Of a DNA stretch of 64,000 nt, positions 3,264 to 57,950 are shown in pieces. The notes under the pieces were generated by a model. The model was not told where the DNA came from, did not search any database, and saw only the letters and a program-made list of their open reading frames with translations. Each line of letters opens with the position of its first letter. Within the stretch, counting starts at the first letter, position 1. The DNA is from Clostridia bacterium (GTDB lineage: Bacteria; Bacillota; Clostridia; Christensenellales; DTU072): assembly GCA_035409945.1 (NCBI GenBank), contig DAONQC010000005.1, positions 57,075 to 121,074 of the forward strand. Direction: 5' to 3'. A program made the translations under genes and the position numbers.

Positions 3264-3438
3264 GTTTATACTTTCCATTTACAATTTATTTAGGACACTT
3301 GGAGACTTTCTTATTCGGTGAAATCTATACCGAGTGTTCCTTCACGATTATACATTAACGGCAAGTTTTACTTTCCTTTTACCACTTGGGGCGTTTGAAG
3401 ACTTTTTCTGATTCGGGAAGATCAAGTCCGAGTGTTCC
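3264..3438 (-). repeat. Decayed downstream copy (3264-3340) of the 3' end of the FAD oxidoreductase gene (3365-3438)
   Basis: Shared CCGAGTGTTCC, ATTCGG, AGACTTT and ACTTTCC.TTTAC at about 100 bp offset. Confidence 0.75.
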
Positions 3439-5169
3439 GCCTGGGTTCATAATGTTATCGGGGTCAAAGTGGTTTTTAAGTGCTTTAAATATATCTAATT
3501 GGTTGGAACCAATTTGTCCTTCAAGCCAGGGAGCAAATAGTTTGCCTATTCCGTGATGGTGAGACATTGCAGCGCCAGACGCTTGAATATGATCTAGTAT
3601 ACCCCTATGATAACTTACAAACTCGTCTATATCTGTCATTTTTGCTATGAATATGAAGTAAAGATTTGCACCCTGTGGATATGCATGTGATAAGTGAGTC
3701 ATGCAGAATGTGTTAGGACGGGATTTACAATATTTCCGTACAAACTGATGTACTTCTAACATATTATCCCAATTAACTGAACATTCCATAGTTTCTATCA
3801 TTACACCAAAATCTTGAAGATTATCTCTCATATATGGATCAGAAAATCTTCCATGTTCCCAGCCTTGTGTAACATATTTAGTTAAATAAAATCCACCATG
3901 TTTTTTGCAAATCTTCTTCACTTGCTTATGCATGTTTTTACAGAAATTCTTTTCACCATCTGTAAATCCTAAAAAGATACAGCGTTTATTTTCTTCGTAT
4001 CCTAAAGCTCTTAAGATTTTATCAGCTGGAGTGTCATGGTCGATTCCATACATTTGTAGCATTATGTTACTTTCTTCAGGGTCTGATAATCTAAACACTG
4101 AAGGAAAACCAAATTCTGCTTGCATAATTTCTTTTGCTGCCGCCACTCCACTTTCAAAGTCTTTGAATATGAAACTGAATTTATAATGGTTTTCTGGCAT
4201 CGCTCTGAATATCTTTAAGGTTACATTTGTTAAAATTCCAAATGCGCCCTCTCCACCTATCATTATTTGATTGATGTCTGGACCTGTTGCCTTTGCTGGA
4301 TAAGTATCAGTTTTAATGTTTCCTATGGGCGTTACATATTCTTGTCCTAAAACTATATGCTCAATTTTTCCATAGTATGTAGAGTTTTGCCCCGCCCCTC
4401 TCGTTACTACCCAACCACCAACTGAACTGTATTCAAATGATTGTGGAAAATGCCCACAGGTATATCTTCTTTTTGCACCATAAAGTTCAGGGGCATTGTT
4501 TAAAACGTGTTCTAAATCTGGGCCCATCATTCCAGCTTGCACTGTAATTGAATGGTTAGTCTCATTGAATTCTATAACTTTATTAAACCTCTTTCTCATG
4601 TCTAGAGTTATCGCACCTTTTCTCATAGGTTCCACACCTCTAGTAACTGATGAGCCACCTCCGTAAACATATATTGGAATTTTATCCTCTTTACAAATTG
4701 CCACAATTTTTTCAATATGTTCTGTAGTATCTGGATATATTACAAGATCTGGTACGTTTTCAATGATTTTATTTCTAAGCCTTAATATGTCTAGCATAGT
4801 TTTTCCATACGCTACACTAGCTCTCGTAAATGGATCTTGGCTTACAAACTCTTTTCCAACTACATCTTCAAATTTTTTAATTTGTTCCTTTGTGAGAGTG
4901 ATTGGAGAGTCAACTTCTACCTTTTCAAGCCCTGCAAATATTGGAGTTTTGAAATCTTCATCAGTCATACCAAAGCTTTTCTTTATCATTTTGTATAACG
5001 ATTCTCTGGGTGCTTTTGCTGCATCTGGATGTCCCCACTTAAAGAGACTTCTATATGATTTTTCTGGAGTTTCAACAATCCACGGTGGTTGATACCCTTT
5101 GTATTCTTTTAGTGGTACTTCATTTTGCGGTTTAGGTAACCACGGTTTTAATGGTTTTACTTTTGTCAT
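3379..5169 (-). CDS. FAD-binding oxidoreductase, alkyl-dihydroxyacetone-phosphate synthase (ADHAPS)/YgcU-like, VAO/PCMH family
   Basis: PDLVIYP, YGGGSSV, GHFPQSFEYSSVGGW, TGPD, GGEGAFGI, SHHHGIGK and DPDNIMNPG motifs. Confidence 0.85.
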   Translation of the reverse strand: MTKVKPLKPWLPKPQNEVPLKEYKGYQPPWIVETPEKSYRSLFKWGHPDAAKAPRESLYKMIKKSFGMTDEDFKTPIFAGLEKVEVDSPITLTKEQIKKFEDVVGKEFVSQDPFTRASVAYGKTMLDILRLRNKIIENVPDLVIYPDTTEHIEKIVAICKEDKIPIYVYGGGSSVTRGVEPMRKGAITLDMRKRFNKVIEFNETNHSITVQAGMMGPDLEHVLNNAPELYGAKRRYTCGHFPQSFEYSSVGGWVVTRGAGQNSTYYGKIEHIVLGQEYVTPIGNIKTDTYPAKATGPDINQIMIGGEGAFGILTNVTLKIFRAMPENHYKFSFIFKDFESGVAAAKEIMQAEFGFPSVFRLSDPEESNIMLQMYGIDHDTPADKILRALGYEENKRCIFLGFTDGEKNFCKNMHKQVKKICKKHGGFYLTKYVTQGWEHGRFSDPYMRDNLQDFGVMIETMECSVNWDNMLEVHQFVRKYCKSRPNTFCMTHLSHAYPQGANLYFIFIAKMTDIDEFVSYHRGILDHIQASGAAMSHHHGIGKLFAPWLEGQIGSNQLDIFKALKNHFDPDNIMNPGGTLGLDLPESEKVFKRPKW

Positions 5170-5401
5170 TTAAATTCCTCCTCGTAATATTGTAATTGTC
5201 TTTTAACCAGCATATGGCAAACTTCGACTTCTTATGTATGTTTGATTCATTTAATTATGTAGTTTGATTAAATTCATAATGTCATCGTCATTTAACCGTA
5301 AACTTTACTGGCTTAAGCTATATATTTATTCTAGTTGATTATTTAGTTTGATTTCATTTTTTTTCTAGCTTTTCTAAATCCATTGTTGTTCTTTATTTGT
5401 G

Positions 5402-6952: not shown

Positions 6953-7096
6953 TTACTTTCTCCTATCGATATACATTGGTCTACTCGCGCGCATCTATTT
7001 TTTGACTCTTTGTTTGTTTTTGCTTTACCTTCCCTTAATTAGTAATTCGGCAAATATGGGCACCTATTGCCCATGGCATATTATATTTTTCACAAA

Positions 7097-7468
7097 CTAC
7101 ATTTCTTTATCGGTTATTATTCTAGTCATGTCAGACGTCGTTATTATGTCAGCACCTGTCCCACAAACATTTGATATTAATGTTGTCCCTATTGGATACA
7201 CTTTATCAATCACCACTTTGTTTATTTCTTCCATAACTTTAAAGATGTCTCCTTTAGGAATTTCCGTCGCCGTTCTAACTGAAACCACTGGCAACTCAGG
7301 GAAAATAGTCTTTACAGTAGTTGCTATAGTCCTGGTGGGATTTGTGACTTCTTTTTCACCAAATCTCTTGCCCCTTAAGCAATCGTTTCCTTCAACTATG
7401 ACTTCAGAATCTTTAATTTCAATTGTTAAAAAACATCCCTTTGGACATTCTATACAAGTTAAATTCAT
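7097..7468 (-). CDS. DUF1667-like small Cys-containing protein, partner of the adjacent flavoproteins
   Basis: CIECPKGC...GNDCLRG...EVTNPTR pattern; usual position in glycerol-3-phosphate oxidation trios. Confidence 0.85.
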   Translation of the reverse strand: MNLTCIECPKGCFLTIEIKDSEVIVEGNDCLRGKRFGEKEVTNPTRTIATTVKTIFPELPVVSVRTATEIPKGDIFKVMEEINKVVIDKVYPIGTTLISNVCGTGADIITTSDMTRIITDKEM

Positions 7469-7539
7469 TTCATCCTTCCTAAATTTATTTTCACTCGATT
7501 TTAATGACTGGTTTTGCTATATATCGGTTGATTGGTGCG

Positions 7540-7690
7540 TCGTTTGAGCTTTATCTATCACTATTAGTGCCTTATCTATAATTATTCGTAACTAACCATC
7601 GCTATTTGTGCCTTATTTATAGTTGTTTGCAACTATCCAACGCTGTTTGTATCTCAACCGTTGTTGTTTGCCTTATTTATCGCTAGTTGG
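7540..7690. repeat. Short degenerate repeats of the stop-codon region of the 424-aa oxidoreductase gene
   Basis: GCCTTAT(T/C)TAT core at about 7549, 7569, 7610 and 7670 (the last contains the stop); 41-bp period between 7569 and 7610. Confidence 0.6.
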
Positions 7691-8947
7691 ACATGCTTCT
7701 ACATTTTCAGCAAATAGTAAAACTTCTACCTGATCTCCTTTTTCTAACTTTAATGGTACTGAGATTTTTTCCATCTCTGGAGGTCTTAAAGCAATATATT
7801 TTTTAGTAAATACTTCCCCTCCGTTTACAGTAACTACTACTTTTGCTTTCAGCATATCTGTACTTGCTCTAAAAAAGAATGTAGTCTTTTCTTTTAGAGA
7901 ATTTATATCTATGTATTGTGGCACCAGGTACATGCACCCTTTAGAACCTACTTCTATTAATTCCCTTTTGTTTTCACTGCCTATATTTTTACCAGCAATT
8001 TCTGAAACTTCACTGACATAATCAACCAGGTCGTGCACATGTAACGCATTGCCTACACTATATATCCCATCTGTTAATGTCATCATGTTTTGATCTACAA
8101 ATGGCCCTTTTGTTCTTTTGTCTATCAATATATCTAAACTTTCTGCAATTTCGTTTTCGGGTATTAAACCAACGGAAACAATTAGTGCATCACACTTGAT
8201 ATATTCTTCAGTTCCTTTTATCGGATTCATCTTATCATCTACTGAGGATATCTCCACCTCTTCAACCCTTCTATTTCCAAACACTCTAGTCACTGTTTTT
8301 GAAAGATGAAGAGGTATATCAAAGTCAATTAAGCACTGTTGAATGTTTCTAGAAAGTCCACTAGGTGTAGATTTTGCTTCATATACGCCTATTACATCTG
8401 CACCTTCTAACTTTAGCCTTCTTGCCATAATTAAGCCAATATCACCACTTCCTAAGATGACACATCTCTTGGTGGGCATAAGTCCCATTAAATTTACAAA
8501 GTTCTGAGCATTACCTGCTGTCATTACCCCAGCTGGTCTATCCCCGTGAATATTGACTTGCCTTGCAGTTCTTTCTCTGCAACCATTTGCAAGTATTAAC
8601 CTTTTAGCTGCATAAGTTTTTATCCCAAGCTTTGATGTAGTTGTTACTACATATTGATCTTTTATCTTTTCAACTTTAATGACAAAAGTTAGGGTCTCAA
8701 GTTTTATATTTGGCTTTTGAAAAACCATTTGAATATACCTTTCTGCATATTCTGGACCTGATAGCTTTTCCTTAAACCTTACAAGCCCAAACCCATCGTG
8801 AATACATTGTTTGAGTATGCCCCCTGCACGCGCTTCTCTTTCAATGAGTAGCACTGAGTATTTTTCATCTACAGCTTCAGCCGCAGCGAGTCCCGCTGGT
8901 CCAGCTCCGATAATTATTACATCATATTTAATTATTTCTCTTGCCAT
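7673..8947 (-). CDS. NAD(P)/FAD-dependent pyridine nucleotide-disulfide oxidoreductase
   Basis: GAGPAG FAD motif, GGILKQCIHDGFG, GSGDIG second dinucleotide site. Confidence 0.9.
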   Translation of the reverse strand: MAREIIKYDVIIIGAGPAGLAAAEAVDEKYSVLLIEREARAGGILKQCIHDGFGLVRFKEKLSGPEYAERYIQMVFQKPNIKLETLTFVIKVEKIKDQYVVTTTSKLGIKTYAAKRLILANGCRERTARQVNIHGDRPAGVMTAGNAQNFVNLMGLMPTKRCVILGSGDIGLIMARRLKLEGADVIGVYEAKSTPSGLSRNIQQCLIDFDIPLHLSKTVTRVFGNRRVEEVEISSVDDKMNPIKGTEEYIKCDALIVSVGLIPENEIAESLDILIDKRTKGPFVDQNMMTLTDGIYSVGNALHVHDLVDYVSEVSEIAGKNIGSENKRELIEVGSKGCMYLVPQYIDINSLKEKTTFFFRASTDMLKAKVVVTVNGGEVFTKKYIALRPPEMEKISVPLKLEKGDQVEVLLFAENVEACPTSDK

Positions 8948-9016
8948 TTAGTATCCTTAACTTATGTTTTATGTCACCTATATTGACTATATATCGCGCA
9001 ACCTAAACGCTTAATT

Positions 9017-10726: not shown

Positions 10727-11099
10727 TGAGCTCTCCTAGTCATAACCAAATGAATGCATCTTCTAGGTTTGAACCATACATAGTAGAATACCTGTGCATT
10801 CTATAACATATGACACATTAAACCTAAATCACCGACCCATTACGATTATACTACCACTTAAACAAGAGTGTGTAAAGAGCGGAGTTTTTTACTATCGCCA
10901 CCATTTGCAACGACCAAGTACCTATTTGTCGTCCTCCGTACTATGACAACCAACACTTATCTTATAACGCCTAGCGTCTATTCACCGTGCACTTACTATG
11001 ATAACTTACACTTGCTATTTGTAACCAATGTCGTTTGAGTTTATCAAATCTTGATTTGTCTTGATTAGCAAAAGTTTGCCTTAAAAAATTAACTGTTGC

Positions 11100-11753: not shown

Positions 11754-11819
11754 TTTTACCTTACATTCTCTTTATCATTATGCATCTATGATAACACAAT
11801 AAGCACTTTTATTATCTTT

Positions 11820-12138
11820 TTCATATATTGACTGCTTGCTATTTATTCTCGCAGGCGCCTACTTTTCAGGTTGAATTTCGTTCGTCTGGACGGGGTTTAT
11901 TATCTTTTAATGGCCTTCCTCTATATTAGTTCATTTTACTTTGTCATCACTTATTTAGATATTGACTATTATATACTTCTACAAGTAGCCTATCTTTTCA
12001 GGTTGAGATTCATTTGTACAGACCTAGGTTTATTATATTCTATTGACTGTCTTCCATATGAGCTTTGTTTTAACCTTTCATCACTTATTCAGATACTGAC
12101 TGTTGTATATTTCTGCATACAAGCCATCCTTTTCAAGG
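11820..12138 (-). repeat. Three degenerate tandem units (about 133-134 bp period); the rightmost contains the end of the ABC transporter gene
   Basis: TCATCACTTATT at 11944 and 12078; ATA(T/C)TGACT at 11825, 11959 and 12093; CTTTTCAGGTTGA at 11862 and 11994. Confidence 0.85.
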
Positions 12139-13871
12139 AGGGTTTTATGTGTGCCTGTTTCTACGATACTTCCATCATCTATAACTAAAATCAAATCTGC
12201 GTTTACTATAGTTGATAGTCTATGTGCTATTACAAAAGCTGTCTTATCCTTCATAAGTTTATCCATAGCTTTTTGAATTAATAGTTCTGTTCTAGTGTCT
12301 ACATTAGATGTTGCTTCATCAAGAATGAGAAGTTCTCTAGCTGATAAAAATGCTCTTGCAATGGTAAGCAGCTGTTTTTGTCCACCCGATAAATTAGAAG
12401 TTCCTTCATCTAGTTCAGTATCATAGCCGTCTGGAAGTGCTTTAATAAAATGATCAGCATAAGCGTGATCACAAGCCTCCATAACTTCTTCTAAAGTTGC
12501 TCCGTCTTTTGCATATCTAACATTTTCAAACACAGTTCCTTTGAATAGCCAAGTATCTTGTAGCACCATAGAAAACAAGTCTCTTACGCTCTCTCTAGAC
12601 ACTGTATTAATGTCAATCCCATCTATATAAATATGCCCACTTTGAATGTCATAGAAACGCATAAGCAAATTAACTATAGTAGTTTTTCCGGCACCCGTTG
12701 GACCAACAATGGCTACCTTTTGCCCCTTTTTAATGTCAATATTTAGATTTTCAATAAGAGGTTTATCTTCGCTATAACTAAAGTATACATTTTCAAATTT
12801 AACGTTGCCTTCTATCTCTTTAGGCATATCTCCAGTGATAACTTCCATCTCTTCATAATCGAGCATCTCATACACTCTCTTAGCCGAAGCTTTAACTCTT
12901 TGCATACTAGCCATACCTTGCGCTATTTGTTCTAGAGGTTGAGTAAATTGTTTAGAGTATAACAAGATGGCAATAACCCCACCAAGTGATAAAAGTCCAT
13001 TGATTGCTAGATATCCACCTAGTAGACAAATTAACGCATAGGAGATACTACTTGTAAAAGTTACTATTGGCACCATCATCCCTGTTAGAATCTGACCCTT
13101 TTTAGATGACTCTGCAATTTCTTTAGTAATATCTGCACCTGCTTTTTCCCTATCGGGCTCTAGTCCATATGCTTTGACAGTAGCGTATCCTGAGTACGTC
13201 TCTTCAAGCTGGACATAATATTTTTCGACACATTCTCTTTCTTTAGAGAAATGCCTAGAACCTTTACCTCCCACTATTGCAGCTAAAGCCATAGATATCG
13301 GCACCATCCCAACTACTACAAGTGCTAGTTGCCAGTTGATTATAAACATCATAACCATCATGGCTAAAACTTGAAAAACTCCCATTATCAACATATCAAT
13401 TATTTCGTGGATGGTGTTTCCCATATCTGATACGTCTGAAGTAATTCGCGAAAGCATTTGACCAGGTTCAGTCTTATCTATATAACTAACTGGTAACATT
13501 TTAATCTTATCTGACATACGTATACGAATATTTGCTGTAAAATGTCTACTTACTGTATAATTCATAACCAGCATTTTTATATACGATAGTATCGCCTTTA
13601 TTACATACATTGAAAGTAATAAAAGGAGTGGTTGCATAACTTCTTTCATCAAGTCAAAAGTTTGTTCTGTTCCTTTAATAAGCCAGTATCTGTTTAAAGT
13701 GTCGACTACTTCTTTTGCAAAAATTGGCGCAATCATATTGGTAGCTATAACTAAAAAAGCTAAAACTGCACCCACCGTCAATCCAGATCGTATTTTTTTC
13801 GCTTCGAATATAAGCCTTAAAATAGTTCTATCTTTTTCTTTTTTAACACGAGGCTTTGTTGATTTATTCAT
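12081..13871 (-). CDS. Heterodimeric ABC exporter subunit (TM + ATPase; TM288-like, consensus site)
   Basis: GPTGAGKTT, LSGGQKQ, LILDEATS, IAHRLST; AGGAGG RBS favours the MNKSTK start at 13871 (ORF track starts at 13904). Confidence 0.9.
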   Translation of the reverse strand: MNKSTKPRVKKEKDRTILRLIFEAKKIRSGLTVGAVLAFLVIATNMIAPIFAKEVVDTLNRYWLIKGTEQTFDLMKEVMQPLLLLLSMYVIKAILSYIKMLVMNYTVSRHFTANIRIRMSDKIKMLPVSYIDKTEPGQMLSRITSDVSDMGNTIHEIIDMLIMGVFQVLAMMVMMFIINWQLALVVVGMVPISMALAAIVGGKGSRHFSKERECVEKYYVQLEETYSGYATVKAYGLEPDREKAGADITKEIAESSKKGQILTGMMVPIVTFTSSISYALICLLGGYLAINGLLSLGGVIAILLYSKQFTQPLEQIAQGMASMQRVKASAKRVYEMLDYEEMEVITGDMPKEIEGNVKFENVYFSYSEDKPLIENLNIDIKKGQKVAIVGPTGAGKTTIVNLLMRFYDIQSGHIYIDGIDINTVSRESVRDLFSMVLQDTWLFKGTVFENVRYAKDGATLEEVMEACDHAYADHFIKALPDGYDTELDEGTSNLSGGQKQLLTIARAFLSARELLILDEATSNVDTRTELLIQKAMDKLMKDKTAFVIAHRLSTIVNADLILVIDDGSIVETGTHKTLLEKDGLYAEIYNSQYLNK

Positions 13872-15663: not shown

Positions 15664-15870
15664 GCAACCTTCTCTTTTTACTAACTATAAATATAGTATC
15701 ATTAAACTAATTTTTAGCACAATTTAAACCACAATATAATAGTGTTATTTACTATCAAAAGTTGCCCTTACCTCCGTAACGCTCGAGGGTCTGTTTACTG
15801 CCCCACTTACTATGACAACTAACATTAACTACTATCAGACTCAAATTAAAACCACCCAATACCAATATGA

Positions 15871-18627: not shown

Positions 18628-18808
18628 ACATATTATAATAATCAATTACTTGGTTTTTACATCTTCACAAAACTAAATGTTTATGATAATATATAGTGCT
18701 AAACTAAAGCGTTCAAAGAAGAAGGATGCAAGATGAATATATAAATAATGTTGCTAACATCTACTTAAGTTAAATTCAAACAACATTATTATACGAGGTA
18801 ATAAAAAC

Positions 18809-19432
18809 ATGATTAATAAATCTATTTATCCAAAAACCGTACGCATTCCTATTGAGGGCGACCAAGTAGTTATCACCGAAAAGTTAGACGGATCAAATCT
18901 AGTAATCTTCAAATTAAATGGCAAGTTATATGTTGCTGCTAGAAATTGGATATTTGACATTGAAAACCCTGAAGACTTTAATGAAATCAGCTATTCTGGA
19001 CTACAAAATTGGCTCAAAATTTATAAAAGTACACTTCTAGATACATTACAAGAAGGAGTTGCTATATGTGGCGAATGGCTTGGTATGGGAACAATAAAGT
19101 ATTCCATAGATAAATTTGATAAACGATATTATATGTTTGCTACAGCTAATGTTGATAATGATTTTAATTTATCAAACTTGACGTATTACGAAGAATATTT
19201 TGCCCTTCCTTTCACTAACCAAGAAATCCCATACTTCATAGGAATTAGACCTGAAGTGACTAGGACACAAGTTATGCCTAACAAAAAGTTTTTAGACAGC
19301 TTATATGAAAAATATACTAGCGTTGAAAAACGAGATGTCGAAGGATTTATCGTTATAGTAGCAAATACAATCAAAAAGTATGTTCGTTTAAAAGGTGGAA
19401 AACTAATAGAGCATTTTGTTTTAACTGACTAA
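18809..19432 (+). CDS. Standalone RNA ligase family protein (Rnl2-like adenylation domain only)
   Basis: Covalent nucleotidyltransferase motifs I (EKLDGSN), III (ICGEW), IIIa (YYMF), IV (VEGFIV), V (KKYVR); no OB or C-terminal domain. Confidence 0.8.
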   Translation: MINKSIYPKTVRIPIEGDQVVITEKLDGSNLVIFKLNGKLYVAARNWIFDIENPEDFNEISYSGLQNWLKIYKSTLLDTLQEGVAICGEWLGMGTIKYSIDKFDKRYYMFATANVDNDFNLSNLTYYEEYFALPFTNQEIPYFIGIRPEVTRTQVMPNKKFLDSLYEKYTSVEKRDVEGFIVIVANTIKKYVRLKGGKLIEHFVLTD

Positions 19433-20348: not shown

Positions 20349-20422
20349 ACACCGCTCCCAAGGTATATTCTTTTCATCTTGATTATATCTTACCTAAAAC
20401 CTAGTTGTCTAGAGGCGAAAAT

Positions 20423-20653
20423 ACAGAAATTAAATGTATGAAAACAAGGTTTATTATTCACTTTCATTTGCGTGAATGATAGACAGGGACTGAATGAGAG
20501 ACTAGCAGTATCTTTCTAGCTGAGATGTAAAACACTAGCCATGAGTGTTATAAAAACAGAATATTTGTAACAACTAAAGTTAAGCTTTTATTATGTTGGA
20601 CTACTTGAGTGAATGATAGACAAAAGATGCTAGAACAACTGGATGGGAGGCTA
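20423..20653 (-). repeat. Decayed downstream copy of the GH2 gene 3' end (137-bp offset)
   Basis: GTGAATGATAGACA at 20472 and 20609; copy reads VYHSRK* versus gene VYHSLK*. Confidence 0.75.
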
Positions 20654-23178: not shown

Positions 23179-23455
23179 CTATCTGCGACTGTTATACAGT
23201 GTTAATTTTGATATATTGTCTTTATGAGACGGCTAGAGGGCTTTATTGCACTATCCACGACTGTTATATAGCGTTAGGGGCTTGCTCTGTTCGCCTTTAT
23301 GAGTCCGCCAGCCTTGCTTGCGCTATCTGAGACATTTATGTAGTGATAGACTGCTATTTCCCTTCCCCACATTCTTTCTTACGCTATCTAAGACAGTTAA
23401 TTGGGTCCTTATCTCCTTTTTTAAGCAAATCCTATCTTGCACTACGTGACATTGT
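23179..23455. repeat. Degenerate intergenic tandem array, 4-5 units
   Basis: CTATCnnnGACnnTTA cores at 23179, 23251, 23323, 23384 and weakly 23442 (periods 72, 72, 61, 58); CTTTATGAG shared inside units 1 and 2. Confidence 0.65.
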
Positions 23456-35929: not shown

Positions 35930-36085
35930 TTTTAAGCATGCATTCCCTAACAAAGAACGTAAGTTGTATAGCAACACCTGACTACATTTCTTTTACAATT
36001 GGTGGAAATATATTTTCTTTATTTACGAGTATAGAATATAAAGATTAACTTTTTAAGCGTATTCCATAACAAATAAATTTAAATT
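35856..36085 (+). repeat. Tandem diverged copy of the lipoprotein gene 3' end plus following sequence (about 119-125 bp offset)
   Basis: AATATAAAGATTAA ends at 35929 and 36048; copy reads DYISFTIGGNIFSLFTSIEYKD* versus gene YYLSFTANSGGNIFSSFTGVKYKD*. Confidence 0.9.
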
Positions 36086-39414: not shown

Positions 39415-39570
39415 ATATCAACTCAACCGTTGCTTGTATTAAACCTCAGTCAGATCAACGCTGATGTTCTCTAGTCTAGTTCTTACTTGTGATATAAATG
39501 CACAGCCTATAAAGCCTTAAAAAGCCTAATGTGTCAGAAGAAACGAATAAGTGTGTTATAGATTAAAATG

Positions 39571-43048: not shown

Positions 43049-43307
43049 ACGAGATGTAATTCCATCTTCATTTGCTTTAAGGCGCCAGGTTTATATACCT
43101 ACCTTGGTTGCGTATAACGATCCTAATTCCTAGTAAGTAGTCTAAATCAGCCGTATTTTCAGCCACTTTATATTGTTTAAGACGAGGATTCCATCTTCGT
43201 TTACTCTAAGCGACAGGTTTCTATACATACCTCGGTTGCGTATAACGATCCTAATTCCTAGTAAGCAACCTAAATCAACAATACTTTTAGCAGTTGTATT
43301 GTTTAAG
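43049..43307. repeat. Two-copy intergenic tandem repeat, about 129-bp unit
   Basis: ATTCCATCTTC at 43059 and 43188; identical core GGTTGCGTATAACGATCCTAATTCCTAGTAAG in both; both end TATTGTTTAAG. Confidence 0.92.
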
Positions 43308-48840: not shown

Positions 48841-49225
48841 GCTTCCTCTCTTTCGTATGCATACTCAGCAAGATTTCTTGCAAACAACACTAAATCCAAT
48901 TTAAGTTACTTTACCGTCTCCATTTAAATCCATAACATATTTTTATTTTCACTTCCAAGTAGTATTTGAGCCATTTCCTCTATTTTCATGTGGGCTGTGA
49001 CGCTTTCTTGCAAACAACACTATGTTACTTTACCGCCCCTATTTAAATCCATAACAGATTTTTCTCTTTTGAGTAATGTCTCAGCGGTTTTTATGTTTTT
49101 ATGTAGACAGTGCAAACTTTCTTGCAAACAACACTAAATCTAATTGTGTTACTTTACCGTCCCCATTTAAATCCATAACATATTTTTTATTTTCACTTCT
49201 AAGTAGTATTTGTGCCATTTCTTCC
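48837..49225 (-). repeat. Three copies of the dockerin-coding 3' end of the protease gene (one functional, two decayed)
   Basis: TTTCTTGCAAACAACACTA at 48874, 49004 and 49118; GTTACTTTACCG and ATTTAAATCCATAACA in all three. Confidence 0.95.
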
Positions 49226-52200
49226 AAGTCTGCAGATGTACTGATGCCATCACCATTTGCGTCTCCAAACACATTAACCTCGAAGTCATATATCACAACG
49301 TCGTCTGCATTTTTAAATACTACTCTATCTCCCGTTCTAAGCGCTCTAGAACCCTCCCCAGTGCTGACACTCGAACCATTTTTATCTAGCATATGTTTTG
49401 TTAAATAATCAGCATTGGAGAACAAGTTAAATGCTTCCGAAACGAAAACACCCTCATCTTTTATAGCTACTACTCTATTTTGTTTATCTACAGTAATGCC
49501 AGTTTTTGTCTTATAGCTAAGCACACTCTCCCCATCTTTGCTTACATATACACCAAACGAAGCAACAGCAGCATCTATGTTTTGTCCAGTTATAGTTACT
49601 GTTTGAGACCCAACTTGAGTGGGGTTATAATTGATTTTTAGATTTGCTGCTTTTATAGCCGCTCCCTCTAAAGATAACTTTCTACTGCTACGATATTCAA
49701 CCTCAAGTTTTAATCCTAAAATATTCAAAGCTTGTCCGTATTGATACTCTCTCTGGTTAGGAGTCTTAACAATAGTTATGTTATCTTCTTTATCTATGAC
49801 TTCGACAGATATAGCCTTTGTAACAGTAAGCGTTACTATCTTCGGATTTTCTGGCGACACAGTAATCATTATGTCATTTGGGGTTCTTCGTGTCGGCGTT
49901 ACTGTCACTACATCTTTATTATTTACTCTTGTTACTGTTATATATCCTGGCTCGCCAGCACCATTTAAGGTCATTTCTTCTCTATAAGTAAATACAACAT
50001 TCTGAGTCCCTATTGCCGTCTTATCGTAGTTGTGTGAATATCTGACTGCACCTATTCTATTATTTTCACCATTTGCATATGTTAGTCTCACCTCTTGAAT
50101 TGCTAAAGATTCGTTATATAAGTATGTAAACTTACTTAAATTCACATCCAATCTAGATGGATTATTCCTAACATAACAAGTTACTTGTTGACTCCAAACA
50201 ACCTCTTGACCTATTCGATACTGTAAAGTTATTGCTTGGCCATTAGCATCAACGTTTGCTCCATTCATTTCGGGGTACACTTTGTAATTTGGCGAACCTG
50301 CATCAAAATACTCTTCTTCTTTTGCCCCTGATTCATATTCAATCTCGAATTTTGCTGACTGTGGATTAAATTCTTCTCCGTACCAGTAATCTATTCTAGG
50401 CTCTTCTATCATGCGTATTTGCTTAAATACATCCAAAACTGTTAGTATGAACTCTTTTGAGCCTGTATAATCAGCTTCTGCATATTCTACAGTGACCTTT
50501 ATCTCACCAAGTGTAGTATTGTAATTTGTTCCTTCTATTATAATACCTTCTTTTTCTCTACCTATGAACACACCATTTTTCTCATACTTAATGGAGTACG
50601 TGCTAGGACTAACTAAAACTTTTCCCCTTAAAGTCATCTCTACATATACGTCAATAGTCATTTTCCCATTGTATGAAATGGTTTGATTTTCTATTGTATG
50701 TATATATTTAGGGGTATCAATAATCTTAATTTTAGTGTATTTCCACTCATTTAAATATCTCATACCAAGGGGCTGTACTACATTAATCAGTTCGGGATCA
50801 TACACCATTTCCATTGGTGTTCTTATATCTATTCCACCAGCTTGCAACGATCTTCTAACTCTTAAATCTTGAGGCTTGGGGTCTCCTGTAAGTGGCGTAT
50901 ATTTAAAAGTAGTTATGTCTTCCTCACCCAAGAGAATATAGTTACTAGGATTAGCAGGGTCTTTCTTGGAAATTCCCCAGGAAGAGGATTGTGATAGACC
51001 TCTTAAAGTAATTTGTAGCCTACTTAATTCATATTCCTCTATTAACACACCATCTTCATACCTTTGAATGTATATTACTAAATCAGATATTTGTTCGGTA
51101 CCGGGATTAGATGCATCATATTCTAAATACTTATTAAAATTCTCCATTCTGAACCAGATATCAGGAGTAGTTTCTTTTGCTCCAATCTTAAATATTTTGC
51201 CTTGATTTTGTACAAACTCTAAATCAATGCTAAAATCCTTTGTAACTTCAAAGTAATGTATATACCCAGGTTGATCTTTATACTTGTATGTGACTTCACC
51301 TTCAAGCAGTACCTCTATGTTAACTGGAGTAGTTGTTAGTTCATTACCTGTTGCGGTGTCGTTGTATTTAACAACTACGCTTTGATATCCTTCAATGGCT
51401 TTGTTATATCCTTCGATTGTTAAGTTGGGTGAATCAAAGTCTTCTAACCTTTCATTACCAGAACGCATGCTCAAAACAACTTGTTCAGTTACACTTATGT
51501 CTTCCCCAAAAGGATATGCAAGTATTCTTGGTGAAAACGATATGTTTTCTACCCAGTCCGAAACAGTTATGTTATGTTTAAGTTCATGTATATCGTTTGT
51601 AAATACTGGATCTGGAACTCTATATGTTAGCGTTTGTCTGCCTAGCTTTTCGCTATTATATCCTTGGAAAGAGGTAGGTTGGACATCATGGTTAGTCGAA
51701 GTATTATCGCTATATGTTATCTTTATTTTTCCCCTTTCACCTGGCGCAATTGATAATGCTTCTCCTAATAAATAATTAGACTTTGGAATTTCAGTAAACT
51801 CCACAAATGTTACATACTTACTAACTATGACACTAACAACAGCACTTGCGCCTTGGTATGTAATAGCTGCATTCTTTGTACCAGTAGTTGAAGTATCGCA
51901 AGTTATCATATCGGGCGTTACTGGTATAACTACTGGAGCTTCTGCACCTATCGTTACTGTCATTATCAAAGAGTCAGGATTGATGGATTCATTTTGTTTA
52001 ACTTTTAATGCTATGGGGTTTGATGGTGTTTCACCCACCTTTTTTACTGTTATGCTAACACCAGCGCTTACGACTGTAACAGCACAAGTATCAGTATATT
52101 CCACATCATCAATCGTAATAGACACCGTAATTATCGCTTCACCAACTGACTGCGCAGTTATTCTCCCTGTCACACTATCAACGGATACGATATCTGGGGC

Positions 52201-55200
52201 ACTTGACGTAAATGTGGGAGAAACGGTTCCTACATTAGTCGCATCAAATGGAATATAACTATACTCTAATTGTACCGATTTAGAAGTGGCTATTCTAACA
52301 CTCTCTTGCGATATTGCTATGCCAGTAAGAGGCTTATCCTCATACGTGGTAATGGTAATACTCTTAGATATACTAGTTCCATTTATTCTTGCTGTAATTT
52401 CAGCCGTTCCTACAGAAAGCGCAGTTAACTTAGCTGTTTTGTGGGTTGTCCCCTCTCCTAACATGTCAACTCTTATTACAGATTCATTTGACGATGTATA
52501 TATAACTCTTTGGTAAGTTGTGCTAGCAGGACTTATATCCACGGATATAGTGCTTGTAGTTCCAACCTTTATTCTACGCCCATCGAGAGGTACAAGATCT
52601 GGATTACTTACGCTGTTTGCGCGTACATAGGTTCCTACTGGATATATTAAATTGACCATTGGATTATTTGTTCCAAACTGTGAAACTCCAATACCAGTAA
52701 ACTCAACAACGCCATCCTCTCTCAAAAATACATTGTGATGTTCGGATGCCGCCATGTCAATTATGTCGTATAGCCCGCTGACTTCGCATTGAGATGAAGA
52801 TGTATCTCCTATCGCTTTCACAGTGCCATTTGGCATTAGTGCTAGTAAGTGTCTTGACCCTGCAACTATGTTAGTAGCGCCTGTTAAACTAGCTAATGCA
52901 TCCGATAGCGGGATACCCCCTCCTACATTAAATTCACCATATATTCCTACTGTGCCATCTGTCCTTAGTACCGCACTGAAACTATCTCCTGCTGTTATCT
53001 TTGCAACAGAGGTTTCTTGTAAAAGCCCAGATTGTCTTTCTAAATCACCAGTAGCAAACACCTTACCTGTGTTGTCTAGACCTACTACATGCCTTGCGCC
53101 AGCAGCTATACTGACTATATTTTTCCATCCACTCACGTTTAGTTGGTAAAAGTCGTTTAAGCCCATTGATAGTACAGTCCCATCATTTGCTAGTCCGTAT
53201 GATGTATAACTACCCGCGACCACTTGTTTTACGTTATACCAACTATCTACTACCGTTTCGCCATAGAAATTATCTCCAAGTGCTGTTACTGTCATGTCTT
53301 TTTTGAGTGCAAGTAGATGTTTTCTTCCTACAGCAATGTCTAAAACGTTTGTTTTTCCACCTACTTCCCAAATGCCAGTTGTAATATCACCAGATACAAC
53401 AACTGTACCTCCATTATTTATGCCCACACTAATTCGCGGTCCTGCAAAAACTTTAGCTTGAATAGTATCGGAAGCAATAATTTGGCTCCATATAGAGGAA
53501 TTGCCCTCTACGTTGTAAGTACCTAACACTTTTTGTTTACCTGCTGCATTTATTACAGTTACTCTTAATTTTGTAGGCATCGCCGATTCGCTTTCAAAAG
53601 GTTCGGTATAGAATACACTAGGTGGCTGCATATTCCCCTTACTATTTACTACAAAAGGAGCATCAAAAACTGTTTGACCTAATTCTGTGTAACTATTTTT
53701 AAATTCACCTAAATTCAAATTACTTGTATTAATAACACTATACGCATTGTCTAAAAGTTCAAGTTTTACATTCGCTAGATATTGTAAATTGATATCTGCA
53801 AATCTAATCTTCGCTTGGACACCACTCCAATCAGAACCATTATATAATGCAATATTTTCAGCTGTAATTTTTCCATCAAATGCATTATCTGGGATTGCCA
53901 ATGTTCCAGTAGGTAAACTAATTCTAAACATAGCAAGGTCACTTCCTACAGAAAGTGCTTCTATTTCTATCTTGCTATTTACACCATCGCTGTAAAATAT
54001 GTTTGTATATTCATATTTAGTTGTCGATGTCCCACTTCCAACGCGGGAAAAATGTGCATTATGAGGAGATAAATTAGCTCGAGCTACATCTTTTGCCGAG
54101 TTGTTATACACATTGTTAGTGGTGGAAATCATATCTACTTTAGGACGAAACACATGTACTTCATCTGGATAAAGACTAGACTGGAATCTAGCATCTCTAT
54201 TTCCTACACTACTGCTAAAATCATGGGGCTCTCTTACTCTATACACAATAAGTCCAGTACCAGGCGCTGCAGCATCATAACTTGAAGAGATGGTAGGATT
54301 TCTATATTCCACCATAAAATATTCGTTGGGTCTTTCGTTTAACGTAATTCTATATGATAAAACTTCAGTTTTAGGAGTTATTGCTACTGGTTTTAAAGAA
54401 TATACGCCACTATCTACCACATCAACTATCTGACTACTAAGGATACCTCCAACATACTTATCTCTTGTGTATGTCAACATATACTGTGGTGTATTGGTAT
54501 TTTGAGCCATCAAATCCCATCTGCCGACAGGTACATAGTCATAGTTATAATGGTAAAAATCTGGAGCGCCTAAAACGTGCCCCATTTCGTGACATAAAAT
54601 CCCAGTGTTTATAGATGTTGAAAAATTGAAGGAATAGTCACCTACTTTAGCTCCACCAAGAGTACTATACCCGCTTCCGTCGATACCATCTAAATTCCAG
54701 CTATGTGGCCAAAGAAGTCCGCCCCAAGTTGATTCATTACTCCCACATATTAAAAAGCTAACACTATCTACATATCCATCGTTATTGATATCGACATTTT
54801 TGCCAGTTAAATCAAATTTGTTTTTTGTAGCATTTATTGCGCCTGTAAGAAGCTCACTTTCTTTTTGTCTTCTTGTCGCTGTGTTTGAATCCTTAATGTT
54901 ATAGTCTTGTCTATTTCCACCATTATGCACATACACAGCCCCAGATTCTCGGGGTAAGATACTGTTTATAGTAACATCATGGTTGCTCATTACCTCATAG
55001 TAGTTTCTAAGGGAATTATTTACACCATTAAAATACATATCAAAATTTTCGATTGCAGCATTAACTGTTGAATCTAGAGTATCATTGAATTTAATGAGTA
55101 TTACAAAATTAACGATAGTTCTTTTACCTGTTGCGCCGGCAAATAATGGTTGTTGGGGCACTTCTTCAGTAATTTCTTCATTATCATCACCATATGTGGT

Positions 55201-55641
55201 TATAAATCCACCATTCGTACTGGCCCTATCTTCCTTACTCAAAAGTTCGGGATTTAGTGATAAGTTTATATCCTCTACAGTAATGGTTTCAACTTTTGCC
55301 TCTCCTTCTAATACAGAAACACCAGTCGATATAACTTTCCCATTATTATCTAGCGTTGCATATGTTAAAGAATCATCATCTCTAAGTAAAACGTTACCAT
55401 TTTCATCGTGATAATATCTAAATTTTTCATCGCCACTTTCTTTAAAGTTAATCTTCTCTCCATTAACTTCCATACTTCTTTCGAAAGTGTACTTGAATAA
55501 ATCTCCCTGTTTTGTAAAATCCTCATAACCTCTATCCGATCCATTACGGATAAAAGCGAACACACCCACCGCAAAAACTGATAACACAAATATCGTTATC
55601 AAAGCGTATGTCATAAATTTTTTAGTGTTAAATTTCTTCAT
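49099..55641 (-). CDS. Secreted multidomain M6-family (immune inhibitor A-like) metalloprotease with RCC1-like repeats, Big_2/Big_3 Ig-like domains and C-terminal dockerin
   Basis: Signal peptide; DINNDGYVD, LWPHSW, HEMGHVLGAPDFY, WDLMA, EYFMVEYR; RCC1 repeats such as IAVGRKHLLALKKDMTVTALGDN; terminal GDANGDGISTSAD...DLNGDGKVTQLD. Confidence 0.88.
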   Translation of the reverse strand: MKKFNTKKFMTYALITIFVLSVFAVGVFAFIRNGSDRGYEDFTKQGDLFKYTFERSMEVNGEKINFKESGDEKFRYYHDENGNVLLRDDDSLTYATLDNNGKVISTGVSVLEGEAKVETITVEDINLSLNPELLSKEDRASTNGGFITTYGDDNEEITEEVPQQPLFAGATGKRTIVNFVILIKFNDTLDSTVNAAIENFDMYFNGVNNSLRNYYEVMSNHDVTINSILPRESGAVYVHNGGNRQDYNIKDSNTATRRQKESELLTGAINATKNKFDLTGKNVDINNDGYVDSVSFLICGSNESTWGGLLWPHSWNLDGIDGSGYSTLGGAKVGDYSFNFSTSINTGILCHEMGHVLGAPDFYHYNYDYVPVGRWDLMAQNTNTPQYMLTYTRDKYVGGILSSQIVDVVDSGVYSLKPVAITPKTEVLSYRITLNERPNEYFMVEYRNPTISSSYDAAAPGTGLIVYRVREPHDFSSSVGNRDARFQSSLYPDEVHVFRPKVDMISTTNNVYNNSAKDVARANLSPHNAHFSRVGSGTSTTKYEYTNIFYSDGVNSKIEIEALSVGSDLAMFRISLPTGTLAIPDNAFDGKITAENIALYNGSDWSGVQAKIRFADINLQYLANVKLELLDNAYSVINTSNLNLGEFKNSYTELGQTVFDAPFVVNSKGNMQPPSVFYTEPFESESAMPTKLRVTVINAAGKQKVLGTYNVEGNSSIWSQIIASDTIQAKVFAGPRISVGINNGGTVVVSGDITTGIWEVGGKTNVLDIAVGRKHLLALKKDMTVTALGDNFYGETVVDSWYNVKQVVAGSYTSYGLANDGTVLSMGLNDFYQLNVSGWKNIVSIAAGARHVVGLDNTGKVFATGDLERQSGLLQETSVAKITAGDSFSAVLRTDGTVGIYGEFNVGGGIPLSDALASLTGATNIVAGSRHLLALMPNGTVKAIGDTSSSQCEVSGLYDIIDMAASEHHNVFLREDGVVEFTGIGVSQFGTNNPMVNLIYPVGTYVRANSVSNPDLVPLDGRRIKVGTTSTISVDISPASTTYQRVIYTSSNESVIRVDMLGEGTTHKTAKLTALSVGTAEITARINGTSISKSITITTYEDKPLTGIAISQESVRIATSKSVQLEYSYIPFDATNVGTVSPTFTSSAPDIVSVDSVTGRITAQSVGEAIITVSITIDDVEYTDTCAVTVVSAGVSITVKKVGETPSNPIALKVKQNESINPDSLIMTVTIGAEAPVVIPVTPDMITCDTSTTGTKNAAITYQGASAVVSVIVSKYVTFVEFTEIPKSNYLLGEALSIAPGERGKIKITYSDNTSTNHDVQPTSFQGYNSEKLGRQTLTYRVPDPVFTNDIHELKHNITVSDWVENISFSPRILAYPFGEDISVTEQVVLSMRSGNERLEDFDSPNLTIEGYNKAIEGYQSVVVKYNDTATGNELTTTPVNIEVLLEGEVTYKYKDQPGYIHYFEVTKDFSIDLEFVQNQGKIFKIGAKETTPDIWFRMENFNKYLEYDASNPGTEQISDLVIYIQRYEDGVLIEEYELSRLQITLRGLSQSSSWGISKKDPANPSNYILLGEEDITTFKYTPLTGDPKPQDLRVRRSLQAGGIDIRTPMEMVYDPELINVVQPLGMRYLNEWKYTKIKIIDTPKYIHTIENQTISYNGKMTIDVYVEMTLRGKVLVSPSTYSIKYEKNGVFIGREKEGIIIEGTNYNTTLGEIKVTVEYAEADYTGSKEFILTVLDVFKQIRMIEEPRIDYWYGEEFNPQSAKFEIEYESGAKEEEYFDAGSPNYKVYPEMNGANVDANGQAITLQYRIGQEVVWSQQVTCYVRNNPSRLDVNLSKFTYLYNESLAIQEVRLTYANGENNRIGAVRYSHNYDKTAIGTQNVVFTYREEMTLNGAGEPGYITVTRVNNKDVVTVTPTRRTPNDIMITVSPENPKIVTLTVTKAISVEVIDKEDNITIVKTPNQREYQYGQALNILGLKLEVEYRSSRKLSLEGAAIKAANLKINYNPTQVGSQTVTITGQNIDAAVASFGVYVSKDGESVLSYKTKTGITVDKQNRVVAIKDEGVFVSEAFNLFSNADYLTKHMLDKNGSSVSTGEGSRALRTGDRVVFKNADDVVIYDFEVNVFGDANGDGISTSADLEEMAQILLRSENKKYVMDLNGDGKVTQLDLVLFARKFALST

Positions 55642-56123
55642 ATTTTATGTATTTGTTTTGCGTTTTATTATTAGTACCAAGTTGCTCTTTATTGTCTATT
55701 TTATCTTCCAGCCTTAGGATTTTGATTACATTTAATTGCTTACTTTATCTTCAAGTCCTAGATTTTTTTAACCGTTTAAGTTAGAGTTCTATGGCAATGT
55801 TTAATATTATACCAATTTTTTCGCCACATTTCCATATTAATATATAATCATACACACGCGCGCACAAATAGTCTAGTTTTTTAACTTTCAGAAAATCTCC
55901 ACCTAAAAACCTAAAATCATTCTGATCAAGATATGCAACAAACACACAAACCTATCTAAGTAAGCACATTTACTAGTGTACTCTCTCTAATATGAGTTCA
56001 AATTGTCCTTTATAAAAATCAAAACCATTCTATTAAAGGATGATTCTAAACATATCATTAAAACAACCATATACGACGTAAGGTTTGTTAAAAAAAGTGA
56101 TATTAATTTACTTCTCCTCAATA

Positions 56124-56152
56124 TTGACACCTCGTGTCTCTTATATTATTAT
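56124..56152 (+). promoter_or_regulatory. Sigma-A-type promoter for the sugar symporter
   Basis: TTGACA-17bp-TATTAT. Confidence 0.65.
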
Positions 56153-56227
56153 GTACCTAACTTAAGTTTTGTGTGTTTTGGGGATTTTTTTAAAACATTT
56201 GGCATAATATTACTTTTGAGGTGAGGG

Positions 56228-57856
56228 ATGGCTACACTTGCACATGATAAAAAGTATTTAAAACCAGTGGACTATGCATCTTTTGGCGGAGCTATGTTCG
56301 CAAATGGAGCAGTAACTGGACTATTACAAGCATATCTAATGACATTTTCACTGCTTATAATCCCAGATGACAAAAAGTATGTACTCGGAATAATATTTTT
56401 CATCGTAAAAGTGTGGGATGGTATAAACGATCCAATCTTGGGACTTATTGTCGATAGAACAAAAACCAAATGGGGAAAGATGCGACCATACATTATATTT
56501 GCAGCAGTACCATTTGGACTACTAACTATTGCATTTTTTATTATCCCTAATTCTTTTTCAACAACAGCTAAATTAATAATGATATTTTTTCTGTACTTGC
56601 TATGGGATACAGTATCAACCCTTGTCGACGTTCCACTAAACGGTCTATATTCAGTAATAACTCCAAATGCTAAAGAACGAACAAAACTTGTTACTTTTAC
56701 AAGGCTTCTTGGTAGCGTAGGTGGCGAATCAGCTCTAGTGCTATATACTGTCGCTCTTCTTATTCTTGGTAAAGATAAAGTTAGAGAGTCAATAATGGCT
56801 GCAGCTGTCATAATCGGTGTACTTGCCCCTATCCTTTTGATATGGGGTGCTTTACAATCTAAAGAGCGTCTAACACCACCAGTTCAAGAAAAACATTCAA
56901 TTAAAGATGTATTTAAGTATCTAAAACAAAATAAACCATTAATCTTTTTACTCTTTGCAAACCTTCTAACTTTCTTTAGACACGTTGTATCTGCGTCTAT
57001 AATTTATATGGTTGTAATAGTATTTAACGAACCTCATAAACAAATTTTATTTGCTTTACCTGGTGCGATAGCCTCTGTCTTAGGCATGCTTTTGGCACCT
57101 GCCATGAAGAAAAAATTTGACTCTAAATCGATATTTATAATTTCAACGATTGCACACTCCATTGCACTTGTTATAGTTTACGCTGCGGGTAGTTATGCCA
57201 TGTCTAAAGATATGCAAATCGCCTTATACGTCATAGCAGCACTTGCATTTCTTGCCATGTTGCCCGTAGGTCTACTAAACACAGTTCCTACTCTCATGGC
57301 AACGGACATAATTGACTATATGGAATTAAAGACAGGCAAGCGTTATGAAGGTATAACTTTTTCACTCATGACTTTAAGAAGTAAAGTTTCAAGCGGGCTT
57401 AAAGATGCTTGGATGATCTTTTTATTAGTCGTGGTTTTTAAACTAGTAGGAGACACCACAAGTAGTACGTTCCCACCTCAATCCGATTGGACTAAAAAGG
57501 GAATTTTTTGGATGTACACCCTAATACCAGCAGCCACAAACCTGCTTTCAATCGTGCCACTATTTTGGTATAAACTCGATGGTAAAACTATGGAAAAAGT
57601 GCATGCTGAATTAGACAAAAGAAGGTCTGAAGCAGCCATAGCCACTGACACCGAAATAACCTTGTTAGCTGACAATTCAGCGGACAACGTTGAATATGCT
57701 AGACCCTCAAACCTTCCTCAAACCGAACTTGAGAAAAATCTAAGTGATATGCTAGAGTCTTTTAAAACGCCAATACTAACACCTCTTTCCAAAGCTAATC
57801 TAGTAACCACAAATCCAGCTGGCGAAACGATAGAACCCACGCCAAAGGAAGTCTAG
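56228..57856 (+). CDS. MFS glycoside-pentoside-hexuronide (GPH, MelB-like) symporter with long hydrophilic C-terminal tail
   Basis: WDGINDPILGLIVDRTKTKWGKMRPY, DIIDYMELKTGKRYEG; about 12 TM. Confidence 0.9.
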   Translation: MATLAHDKKYLKPVDYASFGGAMFANGAVTGLLQAYLMTFSLLIIPDDKKYVLGIIFFIVKVWDGINDPILGLIVDRTKTKWGKMRPYIIFAAVPFGLLTIAFFIIPNSFSTTAKLIMIFFLYLLWDTVSTLVDVPLNGLYSVITPNAKERTKLVTFTRLLGSVGGESALVLYTVALLILGKDKVRESIMAAAVIIGVLAPILLIWGALQSKERLTPPVQEKHSIKDVFKYLKQNKPLIFLLFANLLTFFRHVVSASIIYMVVIVFNEPHKQILFALPGAIASVLGMLLAPAMKKKFDSKSIFIISTIAHSIALVIVYAAGSYAMSKDMQIALYVIAALAFLAMLPVGLLNTVPTLMATDIIDYMELKTGKRYEGITFSLMTLRSKVSSGLKDAWMIFLLVVVFKLVGDTTSSTFPPQSDWTKKGIFWMYTLIPAATNLLSIVPLFWYKLDGKTMEKVHAELDKRRSEAAIATDTEITLLADNSADNVEYARPSNLPQTELEKNLSDMLESFKTPILTPLSKANLVTTNPAGETIEPTPKEV

Positions 57857-57950
57857 TTAATTCATTATAATACCAGCATCTTTTAGCACAACAAATTAAC
57901 AACTGTAAATATGCTGGTCAAACGCGCGACCACTCCCAAAGGGACTTTAA
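57772..57950 (+). repeat. Strongly diverged downstream copy of the symporter gene's last 28 codons (94-97 bp offset)
   Basis: AATAC...AAAT...GCTGG..AAACG...CCAAAGG..stop collinear in gene (57772-57856) and copy (57869-57950). Confidence 0.6.

Follow-up and report, generated by a model that had tools for sequence, protein, structure and literature searches.

About one gene in eight in the genome of an uncultured digester bacterium of the Clostridia is trailed by a decayed head-to-tail copy of its own 3′ end, and these "echoes" are likely the harmless survivors of a lineage-specific duplication process. The pattern was described in a 64,000-nucleotide stretch of that genome (G000:C5:57075-121074; "the window" denotes this whole stretch), where an initial annotation, made from the DNA letters alone, reported degenerate copies of gene ends behind several unrelated genes; the proteins encoded in the window are mutually unrelated and serve metabolism, transport, and the cell surface. 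The source genome (G000) is that of a free-living anaerobe: 1.98 Mb in 26 contigs, 35% GC, 94% complete, and 85% coding. Its set of 1322 genes comes from our own script, with some error in start positions and short genes. The main comparison is with a sister species (G004; 1.23 Mb compared, about 77% of that genome), which has a median 87% amino-acid identity to G000; no genomes intermediate between near-clonal and this roughly 87% identity were found.

The echo score aligns the last 120 nt of a gene with its next 350 nt, and across all scored G000 genes it recovers a copy behind 151 of 1208 3′ ends. Controls within the same genome are far lower—22 of 1197 5′ ends, 7 of 770 mid-gene positions, 2 of 1208 reverse complements, and 3 of 1210 decoys—and the bias of 3′ over 5′ ends is strong (p = 2e-26). 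A tandem scan of contigs C1-C3 returned 156 matches in real sequence and 0 in shuffled sequence. The offsets of the 151 echoes peak at 100-140 and show no reading-frame bias (mod-3 classes 57/50/44); at 57 loci the gap between copies is below 10 nt, that is, the copies abut. For 112 of 115 stop-spanning clusters, the sequence is unique in the genome. The pattern proposed for the window therefore extends genome-wide, in self-alignment with a 5′ control, against shuffled sequence, and in the histogram of offsets.

The echoes are largely peculiar to this lineage. In G004 they follow 10 of 840 genes, about tenfold fewer, and among orthologues an echo is present in G000 alone at 88 loci, in G004 alone at 6, in both at 3, and in neither at 609. 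Non-genic repeats with a period of 90-150 bp (mode about 113) reach 68.8 per Mb in G000 and 4.1 in G004, whereas periods below 60 bp occur at similar density in the two. Period peaks at 23 and 33 are common to both genomes; a second small peak at 63-66 bp, genome-wide, consists in part of multiples of 22-34 bp units. Across 248 adjacent orthologue pairs, spacers average 165 bp in G000 and 102 bp in G004, and at echo loci the median excess over G004 is 178 bp; past the last echo the ancestral downstream DNA resumes, as read by eye at a few loci. Echoes also stand behind genes that are missing from the G004 syntenic slot, which makes their formation in place likely. In samples of other relatives, 3′ echoes followed 1/90 (G001), 4/107 (G002), 5/58 (G003), and 0/47 (G006) genes. 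The G003 sample (L055-L058) has no 5′ echo in 55 genes against its 5 of 58 at 3′ ends, possibly a weaker or independent form of the same phenotype. Among more distant relatives there was no echo at 188 genes in 21 loci, and among metagenome relatives 2 of 122 genes had one, counted over 15 of 23 loci, the other 8 being left out as apparent duplicates or short. Echo rate does not track protein conservation.

Within the window, each named gene end was aligned to its own downstream DNA and to 300 decoy downstreams per gene; a control gene (41303) was equaled by 106 of 300 decoys. The copies and related repeats are as follows.

3290-3340, minus strand: echo of the end of a FAD-linked oxidase gene (3379-5169); source 3386-3438, offset 98, 39/51 identical, homology running beyond the stop; score 60, equaled by 0/300 decoys.
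7552-7671, minus strand: 41-bp tandem array directly past the stop of gene 7673-8947, mostly post-stop sequence; 0/300 decoys as high.
11894-12017, minus strand: first echo of an ABC transporter gene end (stop 12081); source 12081-12152 plus post-stop DNA, offset 133-135, coding part 53/71 identical; gene-end score 104 at offset 135, equaled by 0/300 decoys.
11816-11868, minus strand: second, older echo of the same ABC transporter gene end, 37/52 identical.
20419-20485, minus strand: weak, deleted echo of a GH2 gene end (stop 20601), offset 137; score 33.5, 2/300 decoys as high.
35974-36076, plus strand: echo of the end of gene 33305-35929, stop and post-stop DNA included; offset 119-125, 63/75 identical; score 109, equaled by 0/300 decoys.
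39455-39527, minus strand: weak echo of a YgjP-like gene end (stop 39571), unnamed in the initial annotation; offset 138, score 36, 0/300 decoys.
43082-43291, no strand: intergenic tandem duplication, period 128, 85% identical.
48988-49095, minus strand: proximal echo of the dockerin-type end of gene 49099-55641, 87/103 identical; missing in the G004 orthologue.
48856-48980, minus strand: distal echo of the same gene end, offset 244, 110/124 identical, followed by the ribosome-binding site (RBS) and start of the next gene; score 156 for this gene end, with copies at about 119 and 244, 0/300 decoys.
57869-57949, plus strand: weak echo of an MFS gene end (stop 57856), offset 97; score 36, 4/300 decoys as high.

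The gene ends that had been named by eye are thus strong at 3379, 12081, 35929, and 49099, and weak though above decoys at 20601 and 57856; the two extra copies reported at two genes are present at 12081 and 49099. The supposed shorter codon echo at 7673 proved to be no codon echo at all, being the 41-bp array that lies mostly after the stop. As for the two purely intergenic duplications that had been proposed, the one placed at 43049 is the repeat at 43082-43291, while nothing passes the tandem-scan threshold at 63217; a 40-bp pair at 63119-63180 does pass it. The gene at 49099-55641 (minus strand) encodes a 2180-aa surface protein with an M6 peptidase, RCC1 repeats, Ig-like domains, and, at its C-terminus, the dockerin-type domain; 21 of 24 family genomes have a match to it.

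The loci are bridged by sequence from several sources. The window stretch is present in sludge, wastewater, and "soil" runs from 2016 to 2023, and the runs compared along it are near-clonal, with 0-3 differences per run over about 20 kb. Contigs of DNA runs from 2016, 2019, 2020, and 2022, runs flagged as possible sources, span the 35929 and/or 49099 loci with hardly a difference; a contig of a 2023 RNA run, not so flagged, spans the 49099 gene end and both its echoes with 1 difference. Over window positions 33000-63900, the contigs of 8 runs of this near-clonal lineage have no joint at any echo. Since contigs of several runs, including the unflagged RNA run, bridge the loci, misassembly, which the initial annotation had proposed to recognize by unspanned junctions, is rejected on the evidence of run contigs in place of reads. 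One run considered as a relative (X20, share 0.10) was rejected as such; it is partial cover of the G000 lineage itself.

An unbiased scan places the copies well beyond gene ends. Its 261 clusters comprise 115 across a stop, 87 between genes, 44 within genes, 10 across a start, and 5 across both. All 44 in-gene clusters are in frame, many in repeat proteins, with no out-of-frame copy within called genes; 9 of the 11 in-gene repeats with a G004 orthologue are missing there, and three of these 9 have periods of 111-126. Similar sequence occurs elsewhere in the genome for 20 of the 87 intergenic clusters, which may belong to dispersed repeats. At 5′ ends, 14 of the 22 matches have offsets of 88-144. 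Because the same class is found between genes, at starts, and in frame within genes, gene ends are not the specific target of the process. With copies placed at random on the G004 layout, one would expect, per 115 stop-only copies, about 89 start-only and 60 spanning both; the 10 and 5 observed are deficits of about 9-fold and 12-fold. The simplest reading would be that a second RBS and start codon is costly and a copy behind a stop is harmless. Junction distance from the stop is consistent with a random-placement null (p = 0.077), and no motif was found in 46 junctions. At these same junctions there is no excess match beyond the aligned start; the edges of the youngest units are decayed. Terminator-like sites are not enriched (1/151 against 46/1062), and echo rates on leading (122/980) and lagging (29/228) strands are equal. 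A helical periodicity of unit length was not accepted, its p value ranging from 0.01 to 0.6 with method and range. The suggestion of frequent tandem duplication is therefore largely supported by the size class, the spacer copies, and the excess in G000, though not its proviso that copies survive only at stops, given the 5′ matches of similar offset and the in-frame copies within genes that only G000 has.

The echoes are dead, and the gene copy is under purifying selection while the downstream copy decays. At 120 loci the echoes have acquired 37 stops; of the 155 gaps there, most are one base long and 20 are multiples of 3. Their substitution spectrum is ordinary and transition-rich in both directions, with echo bases at mismatches of A 434, T 417, G 347, and C 292. 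When changes are polarized with G004 (95 copies at 72 loci), the ratio of non-synonymous to synonymous divergence (dN/dS) is 0.83 on the echo branch and 0.10 on the gene branch: non-synonymous changes number 545 in echoes and 69 in genes, and synonymous changes are equal (174 vs 184). Polarized values of 0.80-0.83 had been considered as proof of neutral decay from identical copies, a use that was dropped upon calibration.

Whether gene and echo began as identical sequences is a subtler matter. The synonymous majority counted by eye in the window (16:11) fails at scale, with 577 synonymous and 913 non-synonymous differences pooled over 120 loci, yet the resulting dN/dS of 0.335 (confidence interval, CI, 0.29-0.39) still lies below the 0.435-0.478 of a neutral simulation in which a live gene stands beside a dead identical copy and passes through the same pipeline. 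Since that arrangement already yields such values, most of the synonymous excess is expected; the replacement of gene ends by incoming alleles, the other idea of the initial annotation, is thus not its main source (simulated 0.44-0.48), although a residual persists. The youngest class (12 loci) has a dN/dS of 0.18, with 29 synonymous and 22 non-synonymous differences (binomial p = 0.002). The fourfold/zerofold divergence ratio is 2.27 (CI 1.97-2.59), and 2.30 at single-echo loci, against an expected 1.74-1.85. Under a latent-age model, the best fit includes a constant offset of 0.098 at fourfold sites, 7.0 log-likelihood units ahead of the null and 3.9 ahead of a free slope; on simulated data the model returns −0.037 for identical copies and +0.054 for alleles 0.1 dS apart. 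Gene and echo had therefore probably diverged by about 0.1 dS when the duplication arose or shortly afterwards, a model-dependent estimate, which points to between-strain recombination that either created the duplication at a tract end or replaced one young copy. Mixing of alleles between strains thus likely contributed, and the incoming-allele idea of the initial annotation is borne out in part. That purifying selection acted on both copies before one died is supported by these model-dependent tests; the polarized test is compatible, not decisive. No gene-echo pair is identical, the best reaching 97% and most copies being 65-90% identical with indels. A constant rate would produce more echoes below 10% divergence than are seen (8/89 observed vs 133/649 simulated); the shortfall fits a floor set by allele divergence, a process that has slowed, or assembly collapse of near-identical copies.

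Many loci have grown into small arrays. At least two echoes occur at 61 of 147 loci, and the copy closer to the gene in sequence is more often the proximal one (35 vs 15, p = 0.007). A few echo-echo pairs are identical (for gene 943, 0 differences of 111). Long perfect cores are about twice as frequent as simulated (11% vs 5%), and in mid-age echoes the 5′ fifth is the most decayed (0.287 vs 0.176 simulated). This pattern is the expected, and partly demonstrated, trace of unequal exchange between a gene and an older echo, which would yield new proximal hybrid copies that retain an old 5′ part. Collapse within the coding part would bring decayed codons into the gene, which would favor the growth of arrays over their shrinkage.

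The genomic complement offers few leads to a responsible machinery. No reverse transcriptase (RT), integrase, or transposase occurs among the 30 window proteins scanned, in agreement with the initial annotation. The one RT match in G000 lies outside the window, in a diversity-generating retroelement (DGR) cassette at about 1.9-6.3 kb of the same contig (G000:C5; L042:1864-6273), comprising RT, Avd, an AAC-rich template repeat, and a TIR-TPR-DUF6273 target, on an integrase-flanked island with an integrase-like open reading frame (ORF) adjoining. The variable repeat of the target is a 100-N assembly gap, and the DGR is possibly diversifying in the population. No RT was found in the part of G004 compared. 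An origin of the echoes in the DGR or its RT was rejected: the mismatches are not confined to adenines, and the single RT sits in its own cassette.

Among repair genes, compared across five genomes of the genus (G000-G004) with some names assigned from family and length, the sole difference found is SbcCD, a weak lead. SbcD over the curated cut-off and a 927-aa SbcC-like gene stand at G000:C18:2391-6404 and were not found in G001-G004; in the family sample beyond G000, SbcD passes the cut-off in G007 alone, where 0 of 10 genes carry an echo, a very small sample. MutS, RecJ, an AddB-type nuclease, RNase HII, UvrD/PcrA, SSB, RecG/PriA-sized helicases, and XseA are present as in G004. G000 and G004 each have one MutS-family gene (C1:51183 and C32:33132, respectively), and a second of about 795 aa (MutS2 by size) occurs in G001-G003, which suggests its loss in the G000-G004 ancestor; being found in neither G000 nor G004, it does not track the phenotype. 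All five genomes have one full Pol III alpha (DnaE-type) and an exonuclease-bearing PolC remnant (the G000 loci of the two lie at C1, about 93 kb, and C2, about 46 kb); comparison of the remnant in G000 and G004 gives 71.5% identity, lower than the median, with a fast-diverging middle part. RecO_C was found in 1 of 5 genomes and is thus uninformative. Loss of the Pol I 5′ nuclease was rejected, the domain being present in an 889-aa frame. Ku, the sign of non-homologous end joining, was not found in the five genomes; ComEC, the sign of natural competence, was likewise not found in them. A gene-loss screen left 66 of 966 G004 genes without a close G000 match; no core repair family appeared in the 32 scanned with Pfam, the other 34 being judged by their N-termini and the screen covering about 77% of G004.

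The explanation that we favor, with moderate confidence, is that the echoes are dead 90-150 bp head-to-tail copies, enriched in this lineage and filtered by selection, which probably often began as the alleles of two strains joined by out-of-register homologous recombination. The size class is nearly confined to G000 relative to its sister, at stops, in spacers, at some starts, and in frame within genes; copies would likely arise anywhere in the genome and survive where every gene stays intact. Selection would purge frameshifting copies and most of those that repeat an RBS and start codon, so that stop-spanning and intergenic copies remain; purifying selection keeps the first copy as the downstream one decays. 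About 0.1 dS of divergence would predate this fate, gained while both were functional alleles. The duplication might be made when an incoming recombination tract ends in an overlap of ~113 nt that escapes trimming, or tracts might stall at a young duplication and replace one of its copies; the two routes seem about equally probable. A more specific version, which we consider doubtful, is a tandem-duplicator phenotype with a ~113-bp ruler at inter-strain tract ends, in which the displaced, untrimmed resident strand would be ligated and both alleles kept side by side. Jointly with that version, and equally doubtfully, an altered end-processing kit (SbcCD present; MutS2 and the PolC polymerase not found) would set the length. 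If the ruler exists, the echoes are a fossil record of allele replacements, and recombination itself inflates spacers.

Several observations weigh against the favored explanation. No loss or gain of a repair gene is tied to the phenotype, the deficits of start-spanning copies are ascribed to selection by inference alone, and large in-frame insertions are in modest excess (13 in G000, 8 in G004). The polarized ratio (0.83, CI 0.69-1.02) falls within the 0.74-0.86 of an offset model, but its interval reaches into the 0.93-1.03 of an identical-copy model and is thus also compatible with identical copies; individually, 2-4 of 107 loci have a significant synonymous excess. The four allele-offset tests share overlapping sites and one mutation model, and so are not independent. 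No donor was seen, the sampled runs being near-clonal, and ComEC turned up in none of the five genus genomes.

The main rival is a purely intrachromosomal mutator—replication slippage, template switching, or break repair—that makes identical 90-150 bp copies, which selection then filters, the residual being an artefact of the mutation model. We regard this as possible, if clearly less probable than alleles joined by recombination; in anatomy the two explanations are alike. It is favored by the neutral simulation that accounts for most of the synonymous excess, the polarized interval that takes in the identical-copy expectation, the echo-echo pairs with no differences, the near-clonal population, and a genus that has a single full Pol III alpha alongside a PolC remnant and in which SbcD passes the cut-off in G000 alone. 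The pooled dN/dS of 0.335, as against at least 0.435, the synonymous majority of the youngest class, the better fit of offset over slope, and the lack of any identical gene-echo pair all speak against it. Transcription-directed copying of 3′ ends, by reverse transcription of mRNA ends or termination-coupled duplication, would suit a strong 3′/5′ bias that follows gene direction rather than replication direction, and an RT present in G000 and not found in G004. It is nonetheless very unlikely, because the size class recurs at 87 intergenic sites, at starts, and in frame within genes, with motif-free, randomly placed junctions that do not lie at terminators, and the sole RT belongs to a DGR cassette, the substitutions being ordinary transitions rather than A-specific.

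Less probable still, and largely refuted, is a maintained reservoir of spare C-termini or regulatory RNA elements. The residual synonymous excess could be read in its favor, as could an RNA-run contig (48486-49208) that covers both 49099 echoes, though with possible DNA carry-over; against it, stops and frameshifts accumulate, offsets ignore the reading frame, at 88 of the 91 G000 echo loci whose G004 orthologue was scored that orthologue lacks an echo, the Rfam search of the window gave 0 matches, and echo rate does not track protein conservation. An assembly artefact from strain mixture or read-length effects has a negligible probability: the unit is near read and k-mer lengths and the assembly has 26 contigs, but the copies are too diverged and indel-bearing for this, none is out of frame within genes, and contigs of independent years and the RNA run bridge the loci. 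Integration scars (attL/attR with a displaced 3′ end) were rejected, as the copies abut (gaps below 10 nt at 57 of 151 loci) and nothing similar to 112 of the 115 stop-spanning clusters occurs elsewhere in the genome.

Other features of the window bear on different subjects. Upstream of the GH2 gene, a 26-nt motif occurs three times with 72 bp spacing (23179-23348); these could be operator sites or a decayed 72-bp array. A stand-alone RNA ligase gene (PF09414; 18809-19432, plus strand) is missing in the G004 syntenic slot, and short intergenic sequences at 15750-15824 and 18733-18821 match many places in G004; they are probably dispersed repeats flanking an AbiEii/DUF6088 pair and the RNA ligase-like gene. 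A 107-aa Ala/Lys-rich repetitive ORF (61426-61749, plus strand), which we liken to histone H1 by composition, a label of our own, is deeply covered in one RNA run.

Bacterial genomes normally lose non-coding DNA. The G000 lineage instead gained about 60 bp per spacer over its sister, the 90-150 bp class being the sole repeat class to have risen sharply, and the two genomes form a clean pair in which to find the switch behind such a process. The counts also measure the inequality of gene ends, copies that repeat a start falling short of expectation by a factor of about 9 to 12. Should the allele offset hold, echoes keep a record of former alleles and connect tandem duplication with between-strain recombination; if it fails, they are a dense but ordinary mutation scar. 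The titles and abstract openings of the literature searched contained no description of this echo pattern in Clostridia, and none linking tandem duplication to between-strain recombination through preserved alleles.

The closest precedent found is the set of genome-wide intergenic tandem repeats of Ehrlichia ruminantium, likewise a lineage-restricted non-coding inflation by local tandem repeats. Work by Collins et al. in 2005 and Frutos et al. in 2006 is said to describe a period near 150 bp and frequent overlap with gene 3′ ends. G000 shares with that system genome-wide, locus-unique repeats that lengthen spacers relative to kin; it differs in being a free-living anaerobic clostridium with a largely coding genome, whose copies are mostly single and decayed. 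Copy-number variation between samples, a mark of the Ehrlichia-type expansion, was not seen in the G000 stretches compared, which are contigs of a near-clonal population, and to our knowledge no allele offset has been reported there. In DGRs, a 100-150 bp near-copy of a gene's 3′ end lies close to the gene, as template and variable repeats; the echoes resemble this in layout, but their mismatches are not adenine-specific, none of the 151 loci has an RT/Avd cassette, and it is the copy that decays. In fission yeast, microhomology-mediated tandem duplications (MTDs) are short, head-to-tail, genome-wide, and filtered by reading frame, with a peak at 150-nt spacing (PMC8639346). The G000 copies are likewise head-to-tail, of local sequence, and free of foreign insert; for the 4-25 nt junction microhomology of MTDs, the G000 counterpart is the 46 junctions described above, with no excess match and decayed edges in the youngest units. 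Borg elements carry locus-specific tandem repeats that are in frame in ORFs and sometimes start within gene ends (PMC9879509), though their units, in contrast to the decayed G000 units of about 113 bp with one to four extra copies, are perfect, short (18-21 nt in the examples given), and present in many copies. What the present analysis adds is the contrast between sister species, the 90-150 bp class, a measured deficit at start codons, and the evidence for an allele offset.

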